Shown: positions 7,076 to 27,583 of the stretch, in pieces | Layout of the letters: the number at the start of each line of letters is the position of its first letter | How positions within the stretch are numbered: position 1 is the first letter of the stretch | NCBI RefSeq assembly: GCF_001941975.2 | Contig: NZ_CP146991.1 | Location: forward strand, 1,504,524-1,536,523 | Length of the DNA stretch: 32,000 bases | Direction: 5' to 3' | Source of the DNA: Sporomusa sphaeroides DSM 2875 | GTDB lineage: Bacteria > Bacillota > Negativicutes > Sporomusales > Sporomusaceae | Notes under the pieces: model-generated | The model's input: the letters and a program-made list of their open reading frames with translations, nothing else | The model's database searches: none | What the model was told of the DNA's origin: nothing | Position numbers and translations under genes: made by a program

Positions 7076-7376
7076 CCTAAATATTTTCCCACTGGGAAAA
7101 TACAGTATAATTAAGTGTACAGGCTGTTCAGGGGACGGTTAGCTCCTGCCTGTTAAGGAGAAGGATGGTACAATGACTGTTTGAAGCATTTTGCTGTCGC
7201 AGTTGCCACGCTCATGATATTGGCCATAAGCCAAAAGGAATAACCATCTCTGTGCTCAAGCCTGTTTGTTGTACCATCAGAAGCGTAGGCGTGTTGTTTT
7301 TTTCTATGGTGGCGGATTGCTCACCGAAGGCCCGTTTAACTGAATCTTAGCCAGCCGCGCAAGTCAGGATATCCAC

Positions 7377-9091: not shown

Positions 9092-11404
9092 ATGATGCAA
9101 GTTAAGGCAGCTTTGTTAGGGGCAGTGTTGAGTCTTTGCCTCAGCAACACTGCGCAGGCTGCACCTGCTGTGGCGGAAATGCAACCTTCGCTGGCGTTGC
9201 TGAGGCAAAATTATGAAGAACAGCAAGGAAACTGGCAGGTAGCGCAGGATTATGCGGTGGCATTGGCGCGGGATGGACAGTATGGGCTGGCACTGGCTAT
9301 ATTCGAAACGTTGTCAGAATATGCCGGTGTGCAGAAAACCATGTGGTTTGATTATGCTGTTGTTGCTTGCTGGGCCGGGGATTATGCAACTGCCGTTCGG
9401 ATTTATGAAAACCAATTACTGCATATGTCGCAAGCTGTTCCCGATTATGTAAGAGTCAATGTGGCCAGCGCTTATTTTAAACTTGAACGCTATAATGAGG
9501 CATGGCAGTTATACCACCGATTAGTTCAAGACGGAAATCAGAAGGTCAGGCTCTGGGAAGCAGAAAGTCTGGCTTATATGGGTAAAAATGAGGAAGCCGA
9601 TATAGTTTATGAGACCTTGCTGACAGAACAGCCTGACAATCTGGAGGTCTATAGCGGCAAAGCCAGACTGCTGTTTTTGCGCGGTGATGCGATTGGCGCG
9701 GTTGCGGTTATTGATAAAGCCCTGGCGCTGATCGCCCGGAGCAAGGAAAAGTATCCGGTGCAATCACTGTTGTCACTGCGGGGGGAAATGGCGGCACAAT
9801 GTATCAGAAATGAGGAGTACTATCATGGAATAGTACTTCTGCGTCCGACGATTCAGGATGGTTCGGCTACCATTCAAATGCAGTGTGATTATATTTTGGC
9901 GTTATTCCTAAACGGCGATTATAAAACGGCGATTACCGAAGCAGAGCGTCTATGGCCAGATTATCGCAGTATTCCCGTATATGGACGGCGGGCGTTAGCC
10001 GACGCTTATTTGCGGTATAACCTGCCCCAACAAGCTATCGGTGTTTATCGCAGTATCTGGGATGATGAAGAATCACTGTTAAGTGACAAACATAGCTTGG
10101 CCTATTCGTATTTATTGTCAGGGAAAAATAAGAGAACCGGCATGGAATTATACACTGAAATTATTAATACAGGCATTGAGCAAGCCATGAATGTTGCTTA
10201 TGATGCTAATCGTTTCTTTGAAATGGGACGATATGAAGCGGGAAAAAATCTGTATCACACAATCATCAATACGTACCCGGAAAATGTAATAATTCGCCAG
10301 CGTTTTGCAGTTGCTCTTTATAATAGTGGGCTGCTCCGGGAAGCCTGCGAGCAATATGAAGCCTTGGCGGCGTTGCCGGCTGCGCAGCCTGTAGCTGCCG
10401 GCGGTATTATAAATTCAGCGGTTACTGTCGGTGACTATCGTGCTGCCAGAAGCGCGCTCGAAAAGCTAAATGGTGAATATAGCACCAACCCGGTTGTGGC
10501 TCAGGCGGCAGGCCGGTTTGACCGGCGCCTGCAGGGTGATATGTATTCTGCTTTTTCCAGCAGTAGTGATTATAAAGGCAATGAGGTTCGCACCGGTCAA
10601 ATCATTGGTGAACAGCGGCTTGGCGATCGTTTCTTTGCATTGGCCGGAGTGGCTGCCAGCCGGATTTCTGATAATGATGGCGCAGATACCCTGAAAACCT
10701 TTTCTGTCGGTGGACGATATGTTGATATGAAACACACCGCGCAGCTGTGGCTGGATCAAAGCCGCAATCACGGGACACTTAATGGTTACCGTTTTGCTGG
10801 CAGTTACTATTTTGGTGAACAAAGCTGGTTGGATTTTGCCATCAATCGTGTACCGGTAGCTGATGTGCAGGCATTGGCAGACCGGATTATGCTGACAGAA
10901 TACCAGCTAGGGTTTACCCGTCAAATAGGTACCCGGGATATCGCTGGCATTACGGCAACTACTGCGAATTACAGTGACAGCAATCTCCGCAACGGGTTTA
11001 GTCTGGACTGGGAACATATCATGATTAATAATGCACAAAAAACGCTGAGCTGGTTTAGTTATTTTGGCAGGGATAATTATAAAAAGCAGGAGATCAATGG
11101 TGTTGAACCTGTCTATGAAAGTCCGGAGACACGGGAAAGTTATGGGGCAGGCTTGCGCCAGCGTTGGCATTACCCTAAGCATTATTGGGAAACCTCGCTG
11201 GATTTGGGCTGGGGACGCGACCGGCCGGAGCCTATAGATTTTAATCCTGCTGTTCGTTTGGAGTATGGTTGTACATTTTCGCGTAATCAAGCATTAGTGA
11301 TTGGTGCCGGCTACGGCTTACGCACCGGTTACTCAACAAGTACAGGGGGAAAGCCCCAATTTGCTGATCGACAATTTGATGTTAGTTACTATTTCACGTG
11401 GTAG
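9092..11404 (+). CDS. pgaA: PgaA-like PNAG export porin (N-terminal TPR domain plus C-terminal outer-membrane beta-barrel)
   Basis: Starting at ATG 9092 (GGGAG RBS 6 nt upstream) gives the signal peptide MMQVKAALLGAVLSLCLSNTAQA. A TPR-like helical-repeat region follows. The C-terminal ~270 aa has alternating beta-strand character and ends in YYFTW, an OMP-type aromatic terminus. It is the first gene of a pgaB-pgaC-pgaD set. The track start at 8990 adds 34 residues with no RBS. Confidence 0.8.
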   Translation: MMQVKAALLGAVLSLCLSNTAQAAPAVAEMQPSLALLRQNYEEQQGNWQVAQDYAVALARDGQYGLALAIFETLSEYAGVQKTMWFDYAVVACWAGDYATAVRIYENQLLHMSQAVPDYVRVNVASAYFKLERYNEAWQLYHRLVQDGNQKVRLWEAESLAYMGKNEEADIVYETLLTEQPDNLEVYSGKARLLFLRGDAIGAVAVIDKALALIARSKEKYPVQSLLSLRGEMAAQCIRNEEYYHGIVLLRPTIQDGSATIQMQCDYILALFLNGDYKTAITEAERLWPDYRSIPVYGRRALADAYLRYNLPQQAIGVYRSIWDDEESLLSDKHSLAYSYLLSGKNKRTGMELYTEIINTGIEQAMNVAYDANRFFEMGRYEAGKNLYHTIINTYPENVIIRQRFAVALYNSGLLREACEQYEALAALPAAQPVAAGGIINSAVTVGDYRAARSALEKLNGEYSTNPVVAQAAGRFDRRLQGDMYSAFSSSSDYKGNEVRTGQIIGEQRLGDRFFALAGVAASRISDNDGADTLKTFSVGGRYVDMKHTAQLWLDQSRNHGTLNGYRFAGSYYFGEQSWLDFAINRVPVADVQALADRIMLTEYQLGFTRQIGTRDIAGITATTANYSDSNLRNGFSLDWEHIMINNAQKTLSWFSYFGRDNYKKQEINGVEPVYESPETRESYGAGLRQRWHYPKHYWETSLDLGWGRDRPEPIDFNPAVRLEYGCTFSRNQALVIGAGYGLRTGYSTSTGGKPQFADRQFDVSYYFTW

Positions 11405-11422
11405 TTAGGAGGTTTATTTTGG

Positions 11423-13264
11423 ATGAACAGAAAAGTGTGGATATCTCTGTTATGCCTGCTGGGAGTATTATTTTCTGTTAGTTTACCGGCTGCGGCAAAC
11501 GATGTTCTTATTTTATGCTATCACGATGTTGCTGAAAAGCCAGGCAATAATATTTATACTGTAACGCCTGCTGCCTTGAGAAGCCATTTGGATTACTTGA
11601 AGGAAAATGGCTATACACCTATTTCGCTTGAAGACTATATTGCAGCATCAAAGGGGGAAGATAAGCTGCCGGCTAAGCCGGTGATGCTAACCTTTGATGA
11701 CGGGTACCAGTCCTTTTATACAAAAGTATTTCCTTTACTGAAAGAATATAATTATCCGGGGATGATGGCCATTGTAACATCATGGCTGGATTACGCCCCT
11801 GCCGATCTGGGACCGCTGCTGACCTGGCAGCAAATTCGGGAGATGGAATCTTCCGGTTTGATTACTATTGCGTCCCATTCTCATGCGGCACATCGTTTTA
11901 CTGTCACTACACCCCAAGGCGACCGGGGACCGCTATTCGGTAGTTTGCAATATAAAGAGGGAAAATACGAATCGGTTGCCGACTACCGGCAACGGGTAAT
12001 GAGTGATTTTGCGGCAACGCAAGCAGTGTTGACAAGAGAATTGGGACATAAAGCCCAAGCGCTGGTTTGGCCTTTTGGGGCCTACACCCAATTAGCTATT
12101 GAGGATGCTTTCGCGGCAGGCTTCGAAGCCTGCTTTGCCTTGGATGACGGGGTTAACCGTCCCGGAAAACAGGCGCTGAAAGAAGCCAATCGTATCATCA
12201 TAACGAATAACCCGTCCAAGAAAAGGTTTGCTCAATTAGTTAACACAATCGGCAAGGCACCGGTCAAAGCCGCACAACTGGATCTCGACAAAATTTATGA
12301 TCCGGATAGTACCGAACAAACGGAAGAAAATCTAAATTTGGCCATTGACCGCCTCCTGGCTTCCGGTACGAATACCGTTTACCTGCAAGCCTTCAGTGAT
12401 GAGAATGGAACAGGCAATATAGAAAGTGTATATTTTTACACCACGACAGCTCCGGTCAGGGCCGATATTTTTAACCATGTGATTGCACGCTTGCGGGCAG
12501 AAGGCAAATTTACAATTTATGCATGGCTGCCGACACTGGCGGCGCAATGGATTATTGATGAGAATCCGGAAACTGCGGTTGTGGCCTGTGAAGCAAAAAA
12601 TCTGGGCTGGTATCGCCGGGCAACTCCTTTTAGCCCGGAAGTGAGTGACCGCCTGACAGCGATGGTTACTGATCTTGTGAAATACAATGATATCAATGGC
12701 ATACTGTTTCAGGATGATGTATATCTTAATGATTTTGAGGATTTCTCACCCGCAGCCAGGCAAGTATTTAAAACTGAGACAGGTTTGGAGCTTACTCCCG
12801 AATTATTGAAAGCTGACCCGGAATTAAATGACCGCTGGATAAAAATGAAAACTAATGCGCTTACCGGTCTGACGGTAAAACTACAGGCTGCAGCGAAAGA
12901 ATACCGGACTAATCTTGGCAGTGCCCGCAATATTTACCCTATCCTTATTACTGAGCCCGCAGCTGAAACGTGGCTGGGTCAAAATTACGGGCAATATCTG
13001 GATACCTATGATTATACGGTGATTATGGCCTATCCCTATTTAGAAAAAGAATATGAGGATCCGGTTGGCTGGCTGGAAGAATTAGCAACAGCTGCATTAA
13101 AGAATCCGCAGAATGCGCAAAAAACCGTGTTTAAATTGCAAACTTATGATTGGAATAAAAACCGCTGGCTAAGCGCAGATGAAATAAATCGCTTTACCAA
13201 TGCGCTGAAGAAAAAAGGCGCTATTCATATTGCATACTACCCGGAGAATGTTTTTTCGGAATAA
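11423..13264 (+). CDS. pgaB: Poly-beta-1,6-N-acetyl-D-glucosamine N-deacetylase PgaB (CE4 deacetylase plus C-terminal glycoside-hydrolase-like domain)
   Basis: Signal peptide, then CE4 motifs (LCYHDV, LTFDDGYQSFYTKVFPLLKEY, SHSHAAH, WPFG), then a ~300-aa C-terminal domain as in PgaB. AGGAGG RBS. Confidence 0.9.
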   Translation: MNRKVWISLLCLLGVLFSVSLPAAANDVLILCYHDVAEKPGNNIYTVTPAALRSHLDYLKENGYTPISLEDYIAASKGEDKLPAKPVMLTFDDGYQSFYTKVFPLLKEYNYPGMMAIVTSWLDYAPADLGPLLTWQQIREMESSGLITIASHSHAAHRFTVTTPQGDRGPLFGSLQYKEGKYESVADYRQRVMSDFAATQAVLTRELGHKAQALVWPFGAYTQLAIEDAFAAGFEACFALDDGVNRPGKQALKEANRIIITNNPSKKRFAQLVNTIGKAPVKAAQLDLDKIYDPDSTEQTEENLNLAIDRLLASGTNTVYLQAFSDENGTGNIESVYFYTTTAPVRADIFNHVIARLRAEGKFTIYAWLPTLAAQWIIDENPETAVVACEAKNLGWYRRATPFSPEVSDRLTAMVTDLVKYNDINGILFQDDVYLNDFEDFSPAARQVFKTETGLELTPELLKADPELNDRWIKMKTNALTGLTVKLQAAAKEYRTNLGSARNIYPILITEPAAETWLGQNYGQYLDTYDYTVIMAYPYLEKEYEDPVGWLEELATAALKNPQNAQKTVFKLQTYDWNKNRWLSADEINRFTNALKKKGAIHIAYYPENVFSE

Positions 13265-13287
13265 TTTAAACCAGGGGGTGAAACAGG

Positions 13288-14532
13288 GTGGAAACATATA
13301 GCTGGCTTGAGTTTTTAGAGAACTATGTTTTCTATTACCCACTGGCAATGAGTATTGTCTGGATGATGGGCGCATCGTATTTTTATTTGCGGCGGGAGCG
13401 AGGAGAAAAACAGGTACCGGAGTTAAAAGAATATCCGCTGGTATCGGTGTTGATTCCTGCCCGCAATGAAGAAGACGCTATCCGCAGCACGGTCGAAGCC
13501 GTACTTACTTCTGAATATCCTAATTTTGAAATTATCGTTCTTGATGATGCAAGTACAGATTCTACCGCAGCTATTATCCAGGAAATTGAAGCTAACGAGG
13601 AACGAGTACGGGTGTTATTGTTAAATAAAAATGTAGGTAAACCGTCGGCGCTGCGTTATGGGGCGTTGGCCAGCAGAGGGGATATCCTGCTTTGCATTGA
13701 TGCGGATGCGTATCTTGATCCATGGGCGATGCACTGGATGGTCAGTCATTTTAATGGTCCCCGCGTGGGGGCGGTTACCGGTAATCCCCGGGTGAGAAAC
13801 CGTACATCCCTGTTGGCGAAAATTCAGGTGGGTGAATACTCCTCAATCATCGGGATGATTAAACGCACCCAACGGATTTTAGGCAAAGTGTTGACTGTAT
13901 CTGGCGTAATTGCTGCTTTCCGTAAGCAAGCTATTTTTGACGCCGGTTTATGGGATACCGACATGATTACTGATGATATTAATATTACGTGGAAACTGGA
14001 AAAACGATTCTGGGATATCCGTTATGAACCGAATGCGTTGTGTTGGATTTTAGTGCCAGAGACGGTCAGCGGCTTGTGGCGGCAGAGAGTCAGATGGGCA
14101 CAAGGCGGTGTAGAGGTTGTCCGCCGGCACCGCGATATTTGGAAAAGCTGGAAACAACGCCGTTTATGGCCGGTATATCTAGAGTATGTGTTATCCATCA
14201 TCTGGTCATATGTTTTTATTTTACTGGGGATTGTCGGACTTGTTAACTTAACTTATCCAACCGGCTTGCCGGAGGTGCGTATTTTTCCGGAATGGAAAGG
14301 TTCGATGCTTGCTTTTATATGTCTGCTGCAGTTTCTCATCGGTTTAACTATTGACCAAAAATATGAGAAATCTATTCCGGGCTATTTGTTTTGGGTTATT
14401 TGGTATCCCTTTGCCTATTGGCTATTGACGGCTTTGGCTACCGTATATGCAGCACCACGGGCATTATTCCGAAAAATGGGACAGCCAGCTGTCTGGACCA
14501 GTCCTGACAGGGGGATATTCACCAAATTATAA
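13288..14532 (+). CDS. pgaC: Poly-beta-1,6-N-acetyl-D-glucosamine synthase PgaC (GT2)
   Basis: GT2 hallmarks are present: VLIPARNEE, VLDDASTD, IDADA, GNPRVRN and the processive-synthase motif QRVRWAQG. TM helices flank the catalytic domain. GTG start with a GGGGGTG RBS. Confidence 0.9.
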   Translation: METYSWLEFLENYVFYYPLAMSIVWMMGASYFYLRRERGEKQVPELKEYPLVSVLIPARNEEDAIRSTVEAVLTSEYPNFEIIVLDDASTDSTAAIIQEIEANEERVRVLLLNKNVGKPSALRYGALASRGDILLCIDADAYLDPWAMHWMVSHFNGPRVGAVTGNPRVRNRTSLLAKIQVGEYSSIIGMIKRTQRILGKVLTVSGVIAAFRKQAIFDAGLWDTDMITDDINITWKLEKRFWDIRYEPNALCWILVPETVSGLWRQRVRWAQGGVEVVRRHRDIWKSWKQRRLWPVYLEYVLSIIWSYVFILLGIVGLVNLTYPTGLPEVRIFPEWKGSMLAFICLLQFLIGLTIDQKYEKSIPGYLFWVIWYPFAYWLLTALATVYAAPRALFRKMGQPAVWTSPDRGIFTKL

Positions 14533-23875: not shown

Positions 23876-23952
23876 GGTGGCTGTGGTGAAGCGGTTAACA
23901 CGCCGGATTGTGGCTCCGGTATTCGAGGGTTCGATCCCCTTCAGTCACCCCA
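23876..23952 (+). tRNA. tRNA-His (GTG)
   Basis: Cloverleaf folded by hand. There is an 8-bp acceptor stem including the His-specific G-1:C73 pair, anticodon stem CCGGA/TCCGG with loop TTGTGGC, T-arm GAGGG-TTCGATC-CCCTT, and an encoded CCA. Confidence 0.9.
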
Positions 23953-23966
23953 ATAATCTTGTTAGT

Positions 23967-24042
23967 AGGGGCGTAGCCAAGTCGGTAAGGCAACGGACTT
24001 TGACTCCGTCATGCGTTGGTTCGAGTCCAGCCGCCCCTGCCA
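23967..24042 (+). tRNA. tRNA-Gln (TTG)
   Basis: Acceptor AGGGGCG/CGCCCCT, anticodon stem ACGGA/TCCGT with loop CTTTGAC, a T-loop GGTTCGAGTCC, and an encoded CCA. Confidence 0.9.
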
Positions 24043-24139
24043 TAAGCAGAGAACCAGGTTTTTAGGAACGATAGTGACACGAAAACCTGTGTGAATCGCT
24101 TAGTTCCGAGCGTTAGTAAGGAACTTATTTAAAGATGTC

Positions 24140-24215
24140 GACCCACTAGCTCAGTCGGTAGAGCACCTGACTTTTAATCAGGGTGTCCCGCGTTCGAGTC
24201 GCGGGTGGGTCACCA
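24140..24215 (+). tRNA. tRNA-Lys (TTT)
   Basis: Acceptor GACCCAC/GTGGGTC, D-arm TAGCTCAGTCGGTAGAGCA, anticodon stem CCTGA/TCAGG with loop CTTTTAA, a T-loop GTTCGAGTC, and an encoded CCA. Confidence 0.9.
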
Positions 24216-24219
24216 TAAT

Positions 24220-24302
24220 GCGGGAGTGGCGGAATTGGCAGACGCACCAGACTTAGGATCTGGCGGGTGACCGTGGGGGTTCAAGTCCCTTCTCCCGCAC
24301 CA
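24220..24302 (+). tRNA. tRNA-Leu (TAG), class II with long variable arm
   Basis: Acceptor GCGGGAG/CTCCCGC, anticodon stem CCAGA/TCTGG with loop CTTAGGA, a long variable arm, a T-loop GGTTCAAGTCC, and an encoded CCA. Confidence 0.9.
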
Positions 24303-24409: not shown

Positions 24410-24498
24410 TTCCGCTTATCAAGACATCCGCGCTTTGGATAATGCAGAAAATCAAATGGGATCATCGAACTAGAACGGAGAAAGGAGGAGAATGGCTT

Positions 24499-24759
24499 AT
24501 GGGGGAGTTAACAAAATTGCCGAATATCGCTGCCAAGTTGGAAGCGCAGCTTGCGGATGTGGGTATTACTACCGAGGAAGAGTTAAGAAACATAGGTAGC
24601 CGTGAAGCATGGCTACGCATCCTTGCCCGTGACCCGTCCGCTTGCATTATGCGGCTTTCAGCGCTGGAGGGTGCAATTCAAGGAATGCGCTGGCATTACC
24701 TTGATGACGAGACGAAAAAGTCGCTTAAGGCGTTTTATCACATGCATAAGGGCAAATAG
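24499..24759 (+). CDS. TfoX/Sxy C-terminal-domain protein (stand-alone TfoX_C)
   Basis: LTKLPNIAAKLEAQLADVGITTEEELRNIGSREAWLRILARDPSACIMRLSALEGAIQGMRW matches the TfoX_C helix-hairpin-helix pattern. ATG 24499 follows AGGAGG. The upstream 19 codons in the track ORF have no RBS. Confidence 0.7.
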   Translation: MGELTKLPNIAAKLEAQLADVGITTEEELRNIGSREAWLRILARDPSACIMRLSALEGAIQGMRWHYLDDETKKSLKAFYHMHKGK

Positions 24760-25531: not shown

Positions 25532-25555
25532 GAATACATATGTATTACATACAGC

Positions 25556-25586
25556 AGAGAAGAGTACCATTACGGTACCCTTCTCT
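25556..25586 (-). terminator. Hairpin between convergent genes, probable terminator of the rSAM-peptide operon
   Basis: 13-position stem agagaagagtacc / ggtacccttctct (one A-C mismatch) with a 5-nt loop, starting 6 nt after the peptide stop codon. The trailing sequence is not strongly U-rich on either strand. A separate 14-bp perfect palindrome aatacatatgtatt lies at 25533-25546. Confidence 0.45.
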
Positions 25587-25592
25587 CTATAC

Positions 25593-25997
25593 TTATAACG
25601 GGTTGCAGGGGCGGTGAGCAGGCCGGCACGGACGCGGGGAACATTGCTGAGGACTGCACTGCCTTGGACTACATTGTTGAGGGCTGCATTGCTGCGGACT
25701 ACATTGCTGTGGTCTGCATTGTTGCGGATTGCACTGTGATGGTCTGCACTGCCTTGGGCTGCATTGCCATGGCCTGCATTGTTGCTGCGGAAAACAAAAA
25801 TGCGGACGGCATTGGCGGGGAGAACAAGGCGCCCAGGAGGGGCGGCAGCCGATTTGCTGATTTGGTCGACAGGGGTTCCAAGCAGGATTGCAGCTTATAC
25901 GTTCAGTATTTTCGTCTTCTTCAAATTCGTCATCCATATCTTCCATTTCCGGGGTTTCCCATTTCGGGTCCATATATTTGTCATCATACATTTTCAT
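25593..25997 (-). CDS. Cys-repeat RiPP precursor candidate (134 aa: acidic leader residues 1-35, C-x-P repeat core residues 36-134)
   Basis: The ATG overlaps the stop of the upstream radical SAM gene (AGATGAAA) and GGAGG lies 5-6 nt upstream. The core has 18 Cys, each followed by x-Pro, with 11 consecutive Cys (C74-C124) spaced exactly 5 residues apart (CSPQQ, CSPRQ, CRPQQ...). Leader coordinates are 25893-25997 and core coordinates 25596-25892. Confidence 0.8.
   Translation of the reverse strand: MKMYDDKYMDPKWETPEMEDMDDEFEEDENTERISCNPAWNPCRPNQQIGCRPSWAPCSPRQCRPHFCFPQQQCRPWQCSPRQCRPSQCNPQQCRPQQCSPQQCSPQQCSPRQCSPQQCSPRPCRPAHRPCNPL
25626..25826 (-). repeat. Imperfect 15-nt (5-codon) tandem repeat inside the precursor CDS
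   Basis: The plus strand reads ggNctgcaNtgNNNN repeatedly (for example ggactgcactgcctt, ggactacattgttga, gggctgcattgctgc). This encodes CxPxQ units from C58 to C124. The units differ at synonymous and non-synonymous sites, so the repeat is not a recent perfect duplication. Confidence 0.85.
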
Positions 25998-27232
25998 CTA
26001 TCCTCCCAGTTTCCTGTGTATGGGTTATAGGAGCAGTCGGCAGGGGCGGCTTGCCAGGACTTCTTTGGGTCCTGGCCTTGGGCTAACGGGCGGCAGTCGG
26101 CGCAGGCAAAGCGGTATTCGCAATCCTGACATTTGCTGATACAGTCCTTTGTGGTTTGCCAGCAGGTGGTCAGCGGTTGGCCGGTAAGTATGGCAGCAAG
26201 TGATGTGTTCAATATGTTTCCACAAACTTGATCACGGGCAAAGATGCAGGGAATGACATCGCCGGTAGACGTTATGGCCAGCCGGCCTGCTAAACAGCTA
26301 TGGAAATGCTGCGCTTTGCCAAATGTTTCAGGGTCGGTAAAGAAGGGGGGCTTAATGGCCGGTTTGCTGTAGGCTTGGGGCAGCAGTTCCAGATTATCAC
26401 CGCGTCCGGTAGGTCGGATGACATCGGGTGGCACAGGCTCAACCCCAAGGTCGGTCAAAAGTTTCACAATATTTTCTGCTTCTTGTTCATTGGCTTTCAT
26501 AATAATAGAAGCAATACGCAGCGGCAGCCCCTTGGCCAGAATTTTTTGAATGGCAGACATAGTTTTGTCAAAACTGCCGGGATGCTGGGTAACCCTATCA
26601 TGAACTGCGGAATTGTCGGCATAGATAGTGGTGGCAATGCTGACAGAATGCTGTTTAAAAAAGTCAATACAGTCATCATCCACAAGTGTGGCATTGGTAA
26701 ATATCTCAACCAATTCATAGTTTTCCTCGCGGGCCTTGATGATTAATTCTCGCCACCTTGGGTACAACAACGGTTCGCCGCCAATAAGCTGAATGCCGTA
26801 GGCGCCTGCCAGCCGGGCTTCGGTAATTAATTCAAGCCAGCGGGTATGTGGCATACAGCCTGCCGCCGTGTGCGGACTGCTGGCCGAATAGCAATGTAAG
26901 CAGCGGTTGTTGCAGGTTGATGTAAGCTCAAGCCAGATATACTCAAGTGTAGGCTGGTACGGCTGGATGGGGCATGTTCGTTTTCCGGCGGGAAGTTCGT
27001 TGTATATTGCGCCAAGCCCTTTGGTTGTCAATTTATCAAGAAATGATAAGTACCGCTTGCCGTCAACTGAGTTGACATCCATTATTTCTTCTAATGCCGA
27101 GCTTTCGCACGCCTTGAGCAGTTCTACTGCTCCCCGGTTGATAGAATACACTCGGCCTGAGGAAAAGTCGTAGATAGCACCGCGTGCTTTCCCTTCTATC
27201 AAGACACTTTCGGCTTTCAAATGGTAATACAA
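25994..27232 (-). CDS. Radical SAM/SPASM-domain peptide maturase with N-terminal RRE (PqqD-like) domain
   Basis: The radical SAM cluster motif is CNNRCLHC (CxxxCxxC) in LELTSTCNNRCLHCY. GGEPLL is also present. The SPASM signature is C-x10-G-x4-C (CLAGRLAITSTGDVIPC), then CQDCEYRFACADC, then a terminal Cys (PADCSYNPY). The first ~95 aa (…GAIYDFSSGRVYSINRGAVELLKACE…) resemble a PqqD-like peptide-recognition element. TTG start 7 nt after GGAGG. Confidence 0.9.
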   Translation of the reverse strand: MYYHLKAESVLIEGKARGAIYDFSSGRVYSINRGAVELLKACESSALEEIMDVNSVDGKRYLSFLDKLTTKGLGAIYNELPAGKRTCPIQPYQPTLEYIWLELTSTCNNRCLHCYSASSPHTAAGCMPHTRWLELITEARLAGAYGIQLIGGEPLLYPRWRELIIKAREENYELVEIFTNATLVDDDCIDFFKQHSVSIATTIYADNSAVHDRVTQHPGSFDKTMSAIQKILAKGLPLRIASIIMKANEQEAENIVKLLTDLGVEPVPPDVIRPTGRGDNLELLPQAYSKPAIKPPFFTDPETFGKAQHFHSCLAGRLAITSTGDVIPCIFARDQVCGNILNTSLAAILTGQPLTTCWQTTKDCISKCQDCEYRFACADCRPLAQGQDPKKSWQAAPADCSYNPYTGNWEDR

Positions 27233-27292
27233 CCGGACGCCTCCTTTAGCGTAGCTTTGCTTATCCTGAGTGGGCTTGTTCAGGATAATTTG

Positions 27293-27340
27293 CGGCTTGT
27301 GTTGTCACCACAGGTTTGGCACAAGCCGTGTTTTTGTGTT
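27293..27340 (+). other. Terminator-like hairpin oriented on the plus strand, just upstream of (antisense side of) the rSAM start
   Basis: 9-bp GC-rich stem cggcttgtg / cacaagccg enclosing an 18-nt loop, followed on the plus strand by tgtttttgtgttt. On the minus strand the same hairpin, together with a second 9-bp hairpin at 27261-27288 (ttatcctga / tcaggataa), would sit in the 5' UTR of the rSAM gene. Confidence 0.5.
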
Positions 27341-27456
27341 TATACATAATATGCAAGCCGATAGATAGGTGCTAGTTTCAATTGTAAAATATACAGCATG
27401 CTGCAAGCATTTTATTGGTGGGAATAGGATTGTTTAACAGAATAGATTGATTAATG

Positions 27457-27485
27457 TTGACAGATAATAATTTATGGTTTATAAT
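27457..27485 (+). promoter_or_regulatory. Consensus SigA promoter of tRNA-Gly (TTGACA-17 nt-TATAAT)
   Basis: Perfect -35 TTGACA (27457-27462), a 17-nt spacer and perfect -10 TATAAT (27480-27485), 24 nt upstream of the tRNA. Confidence 0.7.
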
Positions 27486-27508: not shown

Positions 27509-27583
27509 GCGGAAGTAGCTCAGCGGTAGAGCATCGCCTTGCCAAGGCGAGGGTCGCGAGTTCGAATCTCGTTTTCCGCTCCA
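27509..27583 (+). tRNA. tRNA-Gly (GCC)
   Basis: Acceptor GCGGAAG/TTTCCGC-type stem, D-arm TAGCTCAGCGGTAGAGCA, anticodon stem TCGCC/GGCGA with loop TTGCCAA, a T-loop GTTCGAATC, and an encoded CCA. Confidence 0.9.

Follow-up and report, generated by a model that had tools for sequence, protein, structure and literature searches.

A radical SAM gene and a cysteine-rich peptide gene at one locus

The window analysed here is a 32,000-nucleotide (nt) stretch of the Sporomusa sphaeroides DSM 2875 genome (contig NZ_CP146991.1, positions 1,504,524 to 1,536,523). Its minus strand carries a cassette of two genes, one for a radical S-adenosylmethionine (SAM) enzyme with a SPASM region (25994..27232, 412 amino acids (aa) plus stop) and, directly downstream, one for its putative precursor or substrate, a small cysteine-rich peptide (25593..25997, 134 aa plus stop). 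Both open reading frames (ORFs) lie where an earlier note, made from the letters of the window, had placed them, and the ATG of the peptide gene overlaps the TGA of the enzyme gene as described there (ATGA at 25994-25997). A second ATG at 25991, 2 nt past the enzyme stop, is better spaced to a GGAGG within the last codons of the enzyme gene, and the 132-aa product that starts from it is the choice of metagenome gene callers. The two genes are tightly coupled whichever ATG is used.

The peptide consists of an acidic leader (residues 1-35, 25893..25997), which contains the conserved boxes PKWETPE (25947..25967) and, just ahead of the core, ERIS, and of a 99-aa core (25596..25892) with 18 C-x-P units. 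All of its 18 cysteines (18/18) stand in a C-x-P; 12 of the 18 units read CxPxQ, and the Cys-Cys spacing is five in 12 of 17 cases. Fifteen of the leader residues are aspartate or glutamate, and the core is devoid of aspartate, glutamate and lysine. When the core was shuffled 100,000 times with its composition kept, C-x-P occurred 4.0 times on average and 12 times at most, against the 18 observed. The DNA of the core repeats with a period of 15 at matches of just 69-82%, which indicates that the motif is kept at the protein level. The tail C(M)P..HR(P/L)CNPL (25596..25625 in the window) ends all Sporomusa-type cores (L001, L004, L006, L009, L010 and L046), and cores of the Pelosinus type end in CWPRR(D/Y/H).

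In the NCBI annotation of the same genome (GCA_900042765.1, contig FCOW01000026.1) the peptide gene is not called, so such substrates are probably under-counted. Most of the peptide relatives are unnamed or uncalled.

Architecture of the putative maturase

The assignment of the enzyme to the radical SAM/SPASM proteins, proposed in the earlier note, was borne out. The protein scored 64.5 bits with PF04055 (radical SAM, cut-off 29.5) and 33 bits with PF13186 (SPASM, cut-off 21.5), while its isolated C-terminal fragment reached 25.9 bits with TIGR04085, just under the cut-off of 27. An alignment of 78 enzymes shows the motif C107-x3-C111-x2-C114 (26891..26914), the predicted site of the SAM-cleaving 4Fe-4S cluster, with C111 and C114 invariant and C107 in 77 of the 78. 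The SPASM region (26033..26296) holds seven invariant cysteines (313, 329, 368, 371, 377, 380 and 400) in the order C-x10-G-x4-C, gap, C-x2-C-x5-C-x2-C, gap, C; the reference motif, C-x9-15-G-x4-C, gap, C-x2-C-x5-C-x3-C, gap, C, has x3 instead of x2 as its fourth spacing. No eighth SPASM cysteine is invariant among the 78 sequences, position 311 being H, C or N. Mean column identity in a 21-sequence alignment was 70%.

The N-terminal residues 1-78 (26999..27232) form a putative leader-binding domain that resembles the recognition element (RRE) of systems for peptides that are made by the ribosome and modified after translation (RiPPs), for which we took an N-terminal winged-helix fold of three strands and three helices that binds the leader peptide as the criterion. 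The AlphaFold (AF2) model of the enzyme (overall predicted local distance difference test score, pLDDT, 78) places four strands (2-5, 9-13, 17-22, 27-32) and three helices (33-41, 47-50, 56-70) in this part, at pLDDT 75-93. Residues 20-214 of the enzyme align to residues 18-224 of the CteB chain, taking in the CteB N-terminal region, and the domain aligns to the N-terminus of TIGR04193 (E 0.0017). A Pfam PqqD match was not obtained for these ~78 residues. The 'PqqD-like' domain of the earlier note is thus supported by the modelled fold and not by a family model.

Solved structures were compared by profile search and Foldseek. The best relatives by sequence and fold were SkfB (3e-24; Foldseek rank 1), SuiB and CteB, and SuiB, WgkB, PqqE and MftC were all among the enzyme matches. 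The anaerobic sulfatase-maturing enzyme (anSME), firm clustering with which the earlier note had named as an argument against a RiPP-type system, was a much weaker relative (5e-7, Foldseek rank 16). A phmmer search of the SPASM fragment against the PDB, aimed at the cluster-ligand numbering on anSME and CteB, returned only noise.

Position relative to curated families

NCBIfam (release 20) and Pfam were scanned with the enzyme, its N- and C-terminal parts, 10 enzyme relatives and 11 peptides, and none of these reached the cut-off of a family-specific model. For the window enzyme the best 25 of 67 NCBIfam families were considered, all with at least 51 bits. The best matches were generic (AhbD, 101 bits against a cut-off of 500), and the scores with the models of the sactisynthases SkfB, AlbA and StsB stayed far under the cut-offs (75 vs 625, 64 vs 850 and 57 vs 300 bits); StsB and AlbA were listed for the relatives as well as for the window enzyme. 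The most specific match at the domain level was TIGR04193, the grasp-with-SPASM maturase, which besides the N-domain aligned to the SPASM/C-terminal tail with 90 bits over 112 aa. With 99.5 bits for the whole enzyme and 84-115 bits for the 10 relatives it remained below its cut-off of 175, and the second mark of a grasp-with-SPASM system, an ATP-grasp gene, is absent from the window. TIGR03942, the anSME family, gave 18.9 bits with the SPASM part (cut-off 349) and was not among the best 25 of 67 families for the whole enzyme.

Membership in the CXXX-repeat system, which the earlier note had considered, found no support: the maturase model TIGR04115 was not among the best 25 of 67 for the window enzyme and was absent at E ≤ 1e-20 in the 10 relatives, and the target model TIGR04117 matched only the peptide of a deltaproteobacterial relative, L054, with 13.9 bits against a cut-off of 50. 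The 'Cys-every-fifth' label mentioned there does exist (CefA, NF038108), but the window peptide scored 7.8 bits with it (E 3.1, cut-off 30), and ten related peptides, including those of the pure CFPRQ type, had no CefA match and reached no model. No SCIFF model was found among the best 25 enzyme matches or in any peptide match, and no curated ranthipeptide model among the best 25 NCBIfam enzyme matches.

Named enzyme homologues are annotated just as 'radical SAM protein' or under wrong generic names. Peptide searches of a set of 5.8 billion proteins returned only 2 and 11 matches, all without names, a route that is limited by low complexity and uncalled genes. A literature search found nothing on this enzyme/C-x-P family or on its characterization, as the earlier note had supposed.

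Enzyme and C-x-P peptide are paired across genomes

At E ≤ 1e-10, 639 homologues of the enzyme were found, the top 120 of them at 57-97% identity; the named sources of the top homologues are Sporomusa, Pelosinus, Methylomusa, Lucifera, Dendrosporobacter and Ruminiclostridium sufflavum. Whether homologues pair with C-x-P peptides, a check suggested in the earlier note, was examined in both directions. From enzyme to peptide, a pattern-based genome scan gave 79 loci that hold an enzyme homologue, and 66 of them have, within 3 kb and on the same strand, an ORF with three or more C-x-P. The usual place of this ORF is directly downstream of the enzyme gene (-4 to +46 nt); in some cases it is 100-300 nt upstream. 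Among ORFs with at least six C-x-P, 63 were within 3 kb of an enzyme and one was farther away, a second copy in the L016 locus. That copy (11136..11588) is longer, has 25 C-x-P and is located ~4 kb downstream of the enzyme; the locus has the upstream peptide gene as well.

From peptide to enzyme, metagenome contigs were searched for nothing but the leader box, PKW[D/E]xPE[I/M]x[D/E]W, by means of a DNA pattern. All 35 stretches recovered were within C-x-P ORFs, in which 413 of 417 cysteines belong to a C-x-P, and 32 of the 35 peptides had an enzyme homologue at a distance of 0-107 nt; the other three are at contig ends or on a 1.2-kb contig. Enzyme and peptide are therefore adjacent in both search directions, across phyla and in both gene orders, which supports a conserved pair of the maturase/substrate type as a family trait.

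Exceptions exist on both sides. In Sporomusa silvacetica (L003) the enzyme is in the same syntenic position and the adjacent peptide gene has been lost, and no peptide was found near the enzymes of L040 and L042. Conversely, the peptide lineage P0128/P0131 has no SPASM maturase within 4-10 kb. These cases would suit an explanation in which the small ORF is not a substrate at all and encodes an unmodified metal-binding, Fe-S-binding or structural cysteine-rich protein that shares an operon with an enzyme acting elsewhere. Such an arrangement would hardly produce the adjacency seen in both directions, across phyla and in either gene order, nor a conserved leader box next to an enzyme with an RRE-like domain; moreover, distant relatives of the enzyme are paired with other cysteine-rich peptides. 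We consider it very improbable.

In S. silvacetica, enzyme and promoter are intact, and just 64 nt (7239..7303) separate the enzyme stop from the DUF2238 gene. P0128 (L084-L088, L095) and P0131 (L089-L093) represent a short peptide subtype of 79-88 aa with 6-7 C-x-P and a hydrophobic stretch of 15-17 residues after the first C-x-P; this subtype adjoins the enzyme in L021, L036, L119 and L124. The enzymes P0062 and P0090 of Pelosinus sp. IPA-1 are paralogues. At L045 (9018..9834) two tandem peptides are found 2.2 kb from the enzyme, one with CWPWRGGGG(G) repeats and the other with CWPRRRPPCSP.

The named hosts of the clade with >50% identity are all endospore-forming Sporomusaceae, plus one, R. 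sufflavum. No genome of the Veillonella, Selenomonas or Acidaminococcus type appeared in the scan, an absence that is only suggestive since the scan was pattern-based. More distant relatives, at 33-39% identity, occur in non-sporulating bacteria of the candidate phyla radiation (CPR), Deltaproteobacteria and archaea. The C-x-P proteins of a deltaproteobacterial metagenome-assembled genome (MAG; L054, 7275..7799) and a Woesearchaeota MAG (L068, 4294..5927) start in a Tat-like manner with RRxF(I/L)(K/R). There are three tandem C-x-P paralogues in L068, and at the end of the L054 protein is a peptidoglycan-binding-like domain, which matches the C-terminus of HxsA, another radical SAM target, as well. 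These features hint at an envelope-anchored role outside the spore formers.

The repeat unit of the family is C-x-P

Pro follows at position +2 in 621 of the 626 core cysteines (99%) of 46 Negativicutes-type peptides, and in 95% of those of 20 peptides beside the distant enzymes (33-39% identity; CPR bacteria, Clostridia, Deltaproteobacteria and archaea). Apart from Cys and Pro(+2), no position of the unit is fixed in the family statistics: +1 is R, W, F, N, Y, P or S (W/F/Y together 38%), +3 is R in 37%, S in 18% and N in 12%, and +4 is Gln in 28% and Arg in 5%. Cys-Cys spacing varies from 3 to 9, with a mode of 5, and the core arrays include CNPN (period 4), CFPRQ (5), CWPRQQ (6), CFPRQTx (7) and CRPCPPSQ (two Cys per 8). 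Precursors carry 10-29 units in cores of 50-170 residues. By these statistics the unit of the family is C-x-P, and the CxPxQ array with a cysteine at every fifth position, which the earlier note described for the window, is one local version of it.

The leaders of the Negativicutes peptides keep two boxes, (R/N)PKW(E/D)xPE(M/I)xxW and (D/E)R..(I/V)G, the second just before the first cysteine; those of the distant relatives differ and are of an E-L-x-K-V-T type.

These statistics bear on the chemistry. A thioether from Cys to Gln(+4), suggested in the earlier note, is unlikely to be the chemistry of the family, because Gln(+4) is found in only 28% of the units and spacing goes down to 3. At spacing 3 only x and Pro remain between two cysteines, so that the modification must involve the cysteine, the proline or a backbone carbon.

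The unit is also the first half of the sulfatase motif C/S-x-P/A-x-R. If each cysteine lost its C-beta hydrogen and became a formylglycine, as with anSME, the product would be a poly-aldehyde protein that could condense with amines, and a change on the cysteine itself would explain why Cys and Pro(+2) are fixed and spacing is free. However, Arg(+4) is present in just 5% of the units, and anSMEs have no RRE/leader system and eight cluster-ligating cysteines, compared to seven here. It is true that anSME is a radical SAM/SPASM enzyme that abstracts a C-beta hydrogen (PMC10114670), but by profile search, Foldseek and family score the enzyme is far closer to the peptide cross-linkers than to anSME. 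We regard formylglycine formation as decidedly unlikely.

Other radical modifications have to be considered as well, among them epimerization of the cysteine or a neighbour, a C-C link from the +1 residue, or a change to the proline ring with the cysteine serving as cluster anchor. Radical SAM/SPASM maturases are chemically diverse, SuiB, WgkB, PqqE and MftC are all among the matches, and more than a third of the +1 residues are aromatic (W/F/Y). On the other hand, position +1 is not conserved, R, N, S and P being frequent too, only Cys and Pro are fixed, and where enzymes of this class have cysteine-rich substrates, the outcome has until now been thioethers (PMC10114670). A modification of this kind appears distinctly unlikely to us.

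A conserved, putative sigma-K-type promoter precedes the cassette

Two features of the cassette escaped the earlier note, a conserved, predicted sigma-K-type promoter and the lack of export and protease genes. In an alignment of 13 Sporomusa loci, whose upstream regions are otherwise diverged, GCATATTATG is invariant, with CAC ~15-17 nt upstream. In the window this promoter-like element (27345..27375, minus strand) consists of CTAGCAC (-35 'AC' at 27369-27370), a 15-nt spacer and GCATATTATG as the -10 (27345-27354). In spore-forming Sporomusaceae the pattern is CAC, 15-18 nt, GCATATTATGTA. The sequence CATATTATG occurs 80 times in the 977 kb of sequence searched, and about 70 of these occurrences are 35-145 nt upstream of the first cassette gene; it precedes whichever gene leads, enzyme or peptide, across genera. 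It is found upstream of the orphan peptide P0128 (CAC-N17-CATATTATG, as in the cassettes) and of the orphan enzymes L003 and L025 too. AC-N16-18-CATAnnnT was present in 40 of 49 intervals upstream of cassettes, compared to a background of 0.032 per interval.

The sigma-K consensus is AC at -35 and CATATAAT at -10, both of which a mapped sigma-K promoter has, and sigma-E promoters have ATA at -35 (PMC3789822). In the B. subtilis sigma-K logo a 5-nt -35 block and a 10-nt -10 block are 14-16 nt apart (PMC517825). Taking AC at -35 and CATA---T(A) at -10 as the sequence criterion for sigma-K (PMC3789822, PMC517825), the conserved upstream element of the cassette matches, and by consensus and conservation we assign the predicted promoter to the sigma-K type. 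Two other readings of the element were rejected. As a sigma-A promoter it lacks a -35 resembling TTGACA at 17 nt, and its TG is not placed as in an extended -10; as a sigma-E promoter it lacks ATA at -35.

Clade B, with CRPCPPSQ cores and the peptide gene first (including R. sufflavum), has the upstream block GTGTAAC-N17-AATAT(G/T)(A/C)TATAGGG and a terminator-like hairpin between the peptide and enzyme genes.

Downstream of the promoter, the ribosome-binding site of the enzyme, GGAGG (27240..27244, minus strand), is 7 nt 5' of its TTG start; across the 13 Sporomusa loci of the alignment the TTG and the site, AAAGGAGG, do not vary or hardly do so. Between promoter and ribosome-binding site, the 5' untranslated region contains two hairpins (27261..27328, minus strand; -35.2 kcal/mol, z -3.1), which only the window, S. 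rhizae and Sporomusa sp. KB1 have. An Rfam scan of the cassette and this region found tRNA-Gly only, leaving the hairpins unmatched; they may stem from the insertion of a repeat or serve as a regulatory leader.

Genomic context

On one side the cassette is flanked by tRNA-Gly and tig-clpP-clpX-lonB-like genes, on the other by genes for a DUF2238 membrane protein and a TfoX_C protein, a tRNA cluster and HrpB. This synteny is common to other Sporomusa, in position and in apparently vertical inheritance. The neighbours are housekeeping genes, and no export, immunity or protease gene accompanies the cassette in the window or in the Sporomusaceae loci, nor in most relatives; in one distant locus, L076, genes for an ABC transporter are close by.

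The context bears on a classical RiPP pathway, in which the leader would be cleaved and a polycyclic sacti- or ranthipeptide, for example one with Cys-Gln(+4) thioethers, released as an antibiotic or signal. An RRE-like domain, a radical SAM/SPASM enzyme and a cysteine-rich precursor are the very architecture of sacti- and ranthipeptide systems, SCIFF systems are likewise minimal and widely conserved cassettes, and the transporter genes of L076 would fit. Yet the window and the Sporomusaceae loci offer no protease, exporter or immunity gene, the syntenic position looks vertically inherited, and the promoter is of a sporulation type. At 50-170 residues the cores are longer than one would expect of a secreted RiPP, and none of the side-chain positions is conserved, with Gln(+4) in a minority of units and spacing down to 3 in CRPCPPSQ. 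We therefore hold release of a classical RiPP to be unlikely.

Between the convergent peptide and DUF2238 genes, directly past the peptide stop, is a terminator-like hairpin with a 19-bp stem (25549..25592, minus strand; -27.7 kcal/mol, z -4.8, none of 200 shuffles equally stable) and no clear T-run. ORFs on the opposite strand over the repeat (25614..26086, plus strand, 41-140 aa) were rejected as genes, as they are by-products of the repeat codon pattern. Divergent from the cassette, a perfect TTGACA-17-TATAAT promoter (27457..27485, plus strand) serves tRNA-Gly(GCC) (27509..27583, plus strand). A cluster of four tRNAs (His, Gln, Lys, Leu) is located at 23877..24302, and a stand-alone protein of 105 aa (24442..24759, plus strand; 86 aa by gene callers elsewhere) consists of the TfoX C-terminal domain only (81 bits). 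Farther away, genes for a PgaB-like protein (polysaccharide deacetylase plus GHL13) and then a family-2 glycosyltransferase (11423..14532, plus strand) suggest an operon for a poly-N-acetylglucosamine-type exopolysaccharide.

Proposed function

The reading we favour, to which we give a little less than an even chance, is that the two-gene operon encodes a leader-guided maturase and a Cys/Pro-rich spore-surface protein of the Sporomusaceae that is made in the mother cell and modified, probably with thioethers. RNA polymerase with the late mother-cell sigma factor would transcribe the operon during sporulation. The RRE-like domain would bind the peptide leader, and the enzyme would proceed along the core unit by unit. 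In each unit the cysteine thiolate would bind the free iron site of auxiliary cluster I, the 5'-deoxyadenosyl radical would take a hydrogen from a carbon in or next to the unit, either Pro(+2) or a backbone C-alpha, and a C-S thioether would form. The product would contain up to 18 small rings, each with a mass change of -2 Da, and no free thiols, and would be laid down in or on the outer layers of the spore, for which other spore formers employ cysteine-rich proteins with disulfide bonds.

The sigma-K-type promoter and the lack of export and protease genes speak for a protein that is associated with the spore and against a natural product that is secreted. Since the mother-cell cytoplasm, where coat proteins are synthesized, encloses the forespore, no export step would be needed. 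Cysteine-rich proteins are common building blocks of spore outer layers (PMC7333573, PMC6101409), and none of the papers found on such proteins mentions a radical SAM enzyme. A thioether is the most likely chemistry since the nearest relatives of the enzyme are maturases that form thioethers or other cross-links, and since in the thioether-forming PapB and Tte1186 the substrate Cys or Sec binds the iron of an auxiliary cluster (PMC10177961).

Several observations weigh against this reading. The S. silvacetica enzyme without its peptide and the P0128/P0131 peptides without a maturase break the pairing, and the distant relatives in non-sporulating lineages imply that the pairing of enzyme and C-x-P peptide is older than any role in spores. 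We infer the thioether chemistry only from the kinship of the enzyme and the cysteine content of the peptide. The seven-cysteine SPASM motif occurs in enzymes that do not make thioethers as well, which weakens the argument from an open iron site. The sigma-K assignment draws on a consensus match and its conservation; the spacer in the window is 15 nt rather than 17, and in the clade-B loci (L016, L017, L027, L031 and L049) AATAT replaces CATAT at -10.

A more specific version of the spore-surface proposal treats every C-x-P as a self-contained unit of donor and acceptor. A thioether between Cys and Pro(+2), repeated 10-29 times, would turn the core into a thiol-free block of the coat or exosporium that resists proteases and redox changes. 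We know of no RiPP with a Cys-Pro thioether, and this version seems rather unlikely. If it were true, such stapling would be an anaerobe's substitute for disulfide cross-linking and the first radical SAM step in spore-envelope assembly.

The combination of an RRE, a radical SAM/SPASM enzyme and a cysteine-rich precursor is of a kind already known. The family itself, its three-residue C-x-P unit, the 10-29 units per precursor and the sporulation-type control are undescribed in NCBIfam release 20, Pfam and the searchable literature, and we see a moderate chance of both a new chemistry and a new biological role. The cassette would add a defined and widespread family of enzyme and substrate to the radical SAM peptide maturases, and a recognition unit of three residues is attractive for enzymology and peptide stapling. 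If the link to sporulation is true, the cassette would provide a first handle on the spore-surface biochemistry of diderm spore formers (Sporomusaceae) and a new, oxygen-free way of hardening a structural protein.

Comparison with known systems

CotY/ExsY, CdeC/CdeM and CsxA resemble the proposed product in being cysteine-rich, structural and cross-linked and in depending on mother-cell sigma factors (PMC7333573, PMC6101409). They have no sequence similarity to the C-x-P peptide, however, and use disulfides and self-assembly with no known radical SAM partner. The sulfatase motif likewise presents a radical SAM/SPASM enzyme, anSME, with a cysteine that has Pro at +2; the C-x-P family differs in lacking Arg(+4), in having an RRE-like domain and a leader and in its seven rather than eight cluster cysteines, and its similarity to anSME is weak.

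CefA (NF038108) and the CXXX-repeat system were, like the present family, defined by computation; they too comprise repeat peptides with periodic cysteines and a tie to peptide maturases, and L054, with its CTPT/CSPT units, weakly resembles TIGR04117. The C-x-P family has a variable period, and its scores with these models are under the cut-offs. From the grasp-with-SPASM systems of TIGR04193 it is set apart by the lack of an ATP-grasp partner and by the middle part of the window enzyme, which is a full radical SAM core. Triceptides, the three-residue cyclophane RiPPs, are made by radical SAM/SPASM enzymes that link residue i to i+2 in repeated three-residue motifs, and are in this respect a formal analogue of the C-x-P unit. 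Their bond is a C-C bond from an aromatic ring to C-beta, and no family model of this type was among the matches.

Closer are PapB/freyrasin and the other ranthipeptide systems (CteB/SCIFF, QhpD, NxxcB), which also combine an RRE-like domain, radical SAM and SPASM beside a cysteine-rich precursor, and CteB is among the best structural matches to the enzyme. The iterative action of ranthipeptide enzymes on tandem short motifs, such as the six CxxxD motifs of freyrasin, is akin to what the C-x-P array suggests. The C-x-P family is distinguished from them by having no conserved Asp, Glu, Asn or Thr acceptor, by its 10-29 units and by its sporulation-type promoter. Among the sactisynthases SkfB, AlbA and StsB, SkfB is the best relative of the enzyme by sequence and fold. 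Known sactipeptides have few cysteines and hairpin topologies, unlike the long tandem arrays of the C-x-P cores. The C-alpha thioethers of sactisynthases would nevertheless tolerate any acceptor side chain, a freedom seen in the C-x-P units, and SkfB itself is linked to sporulation.

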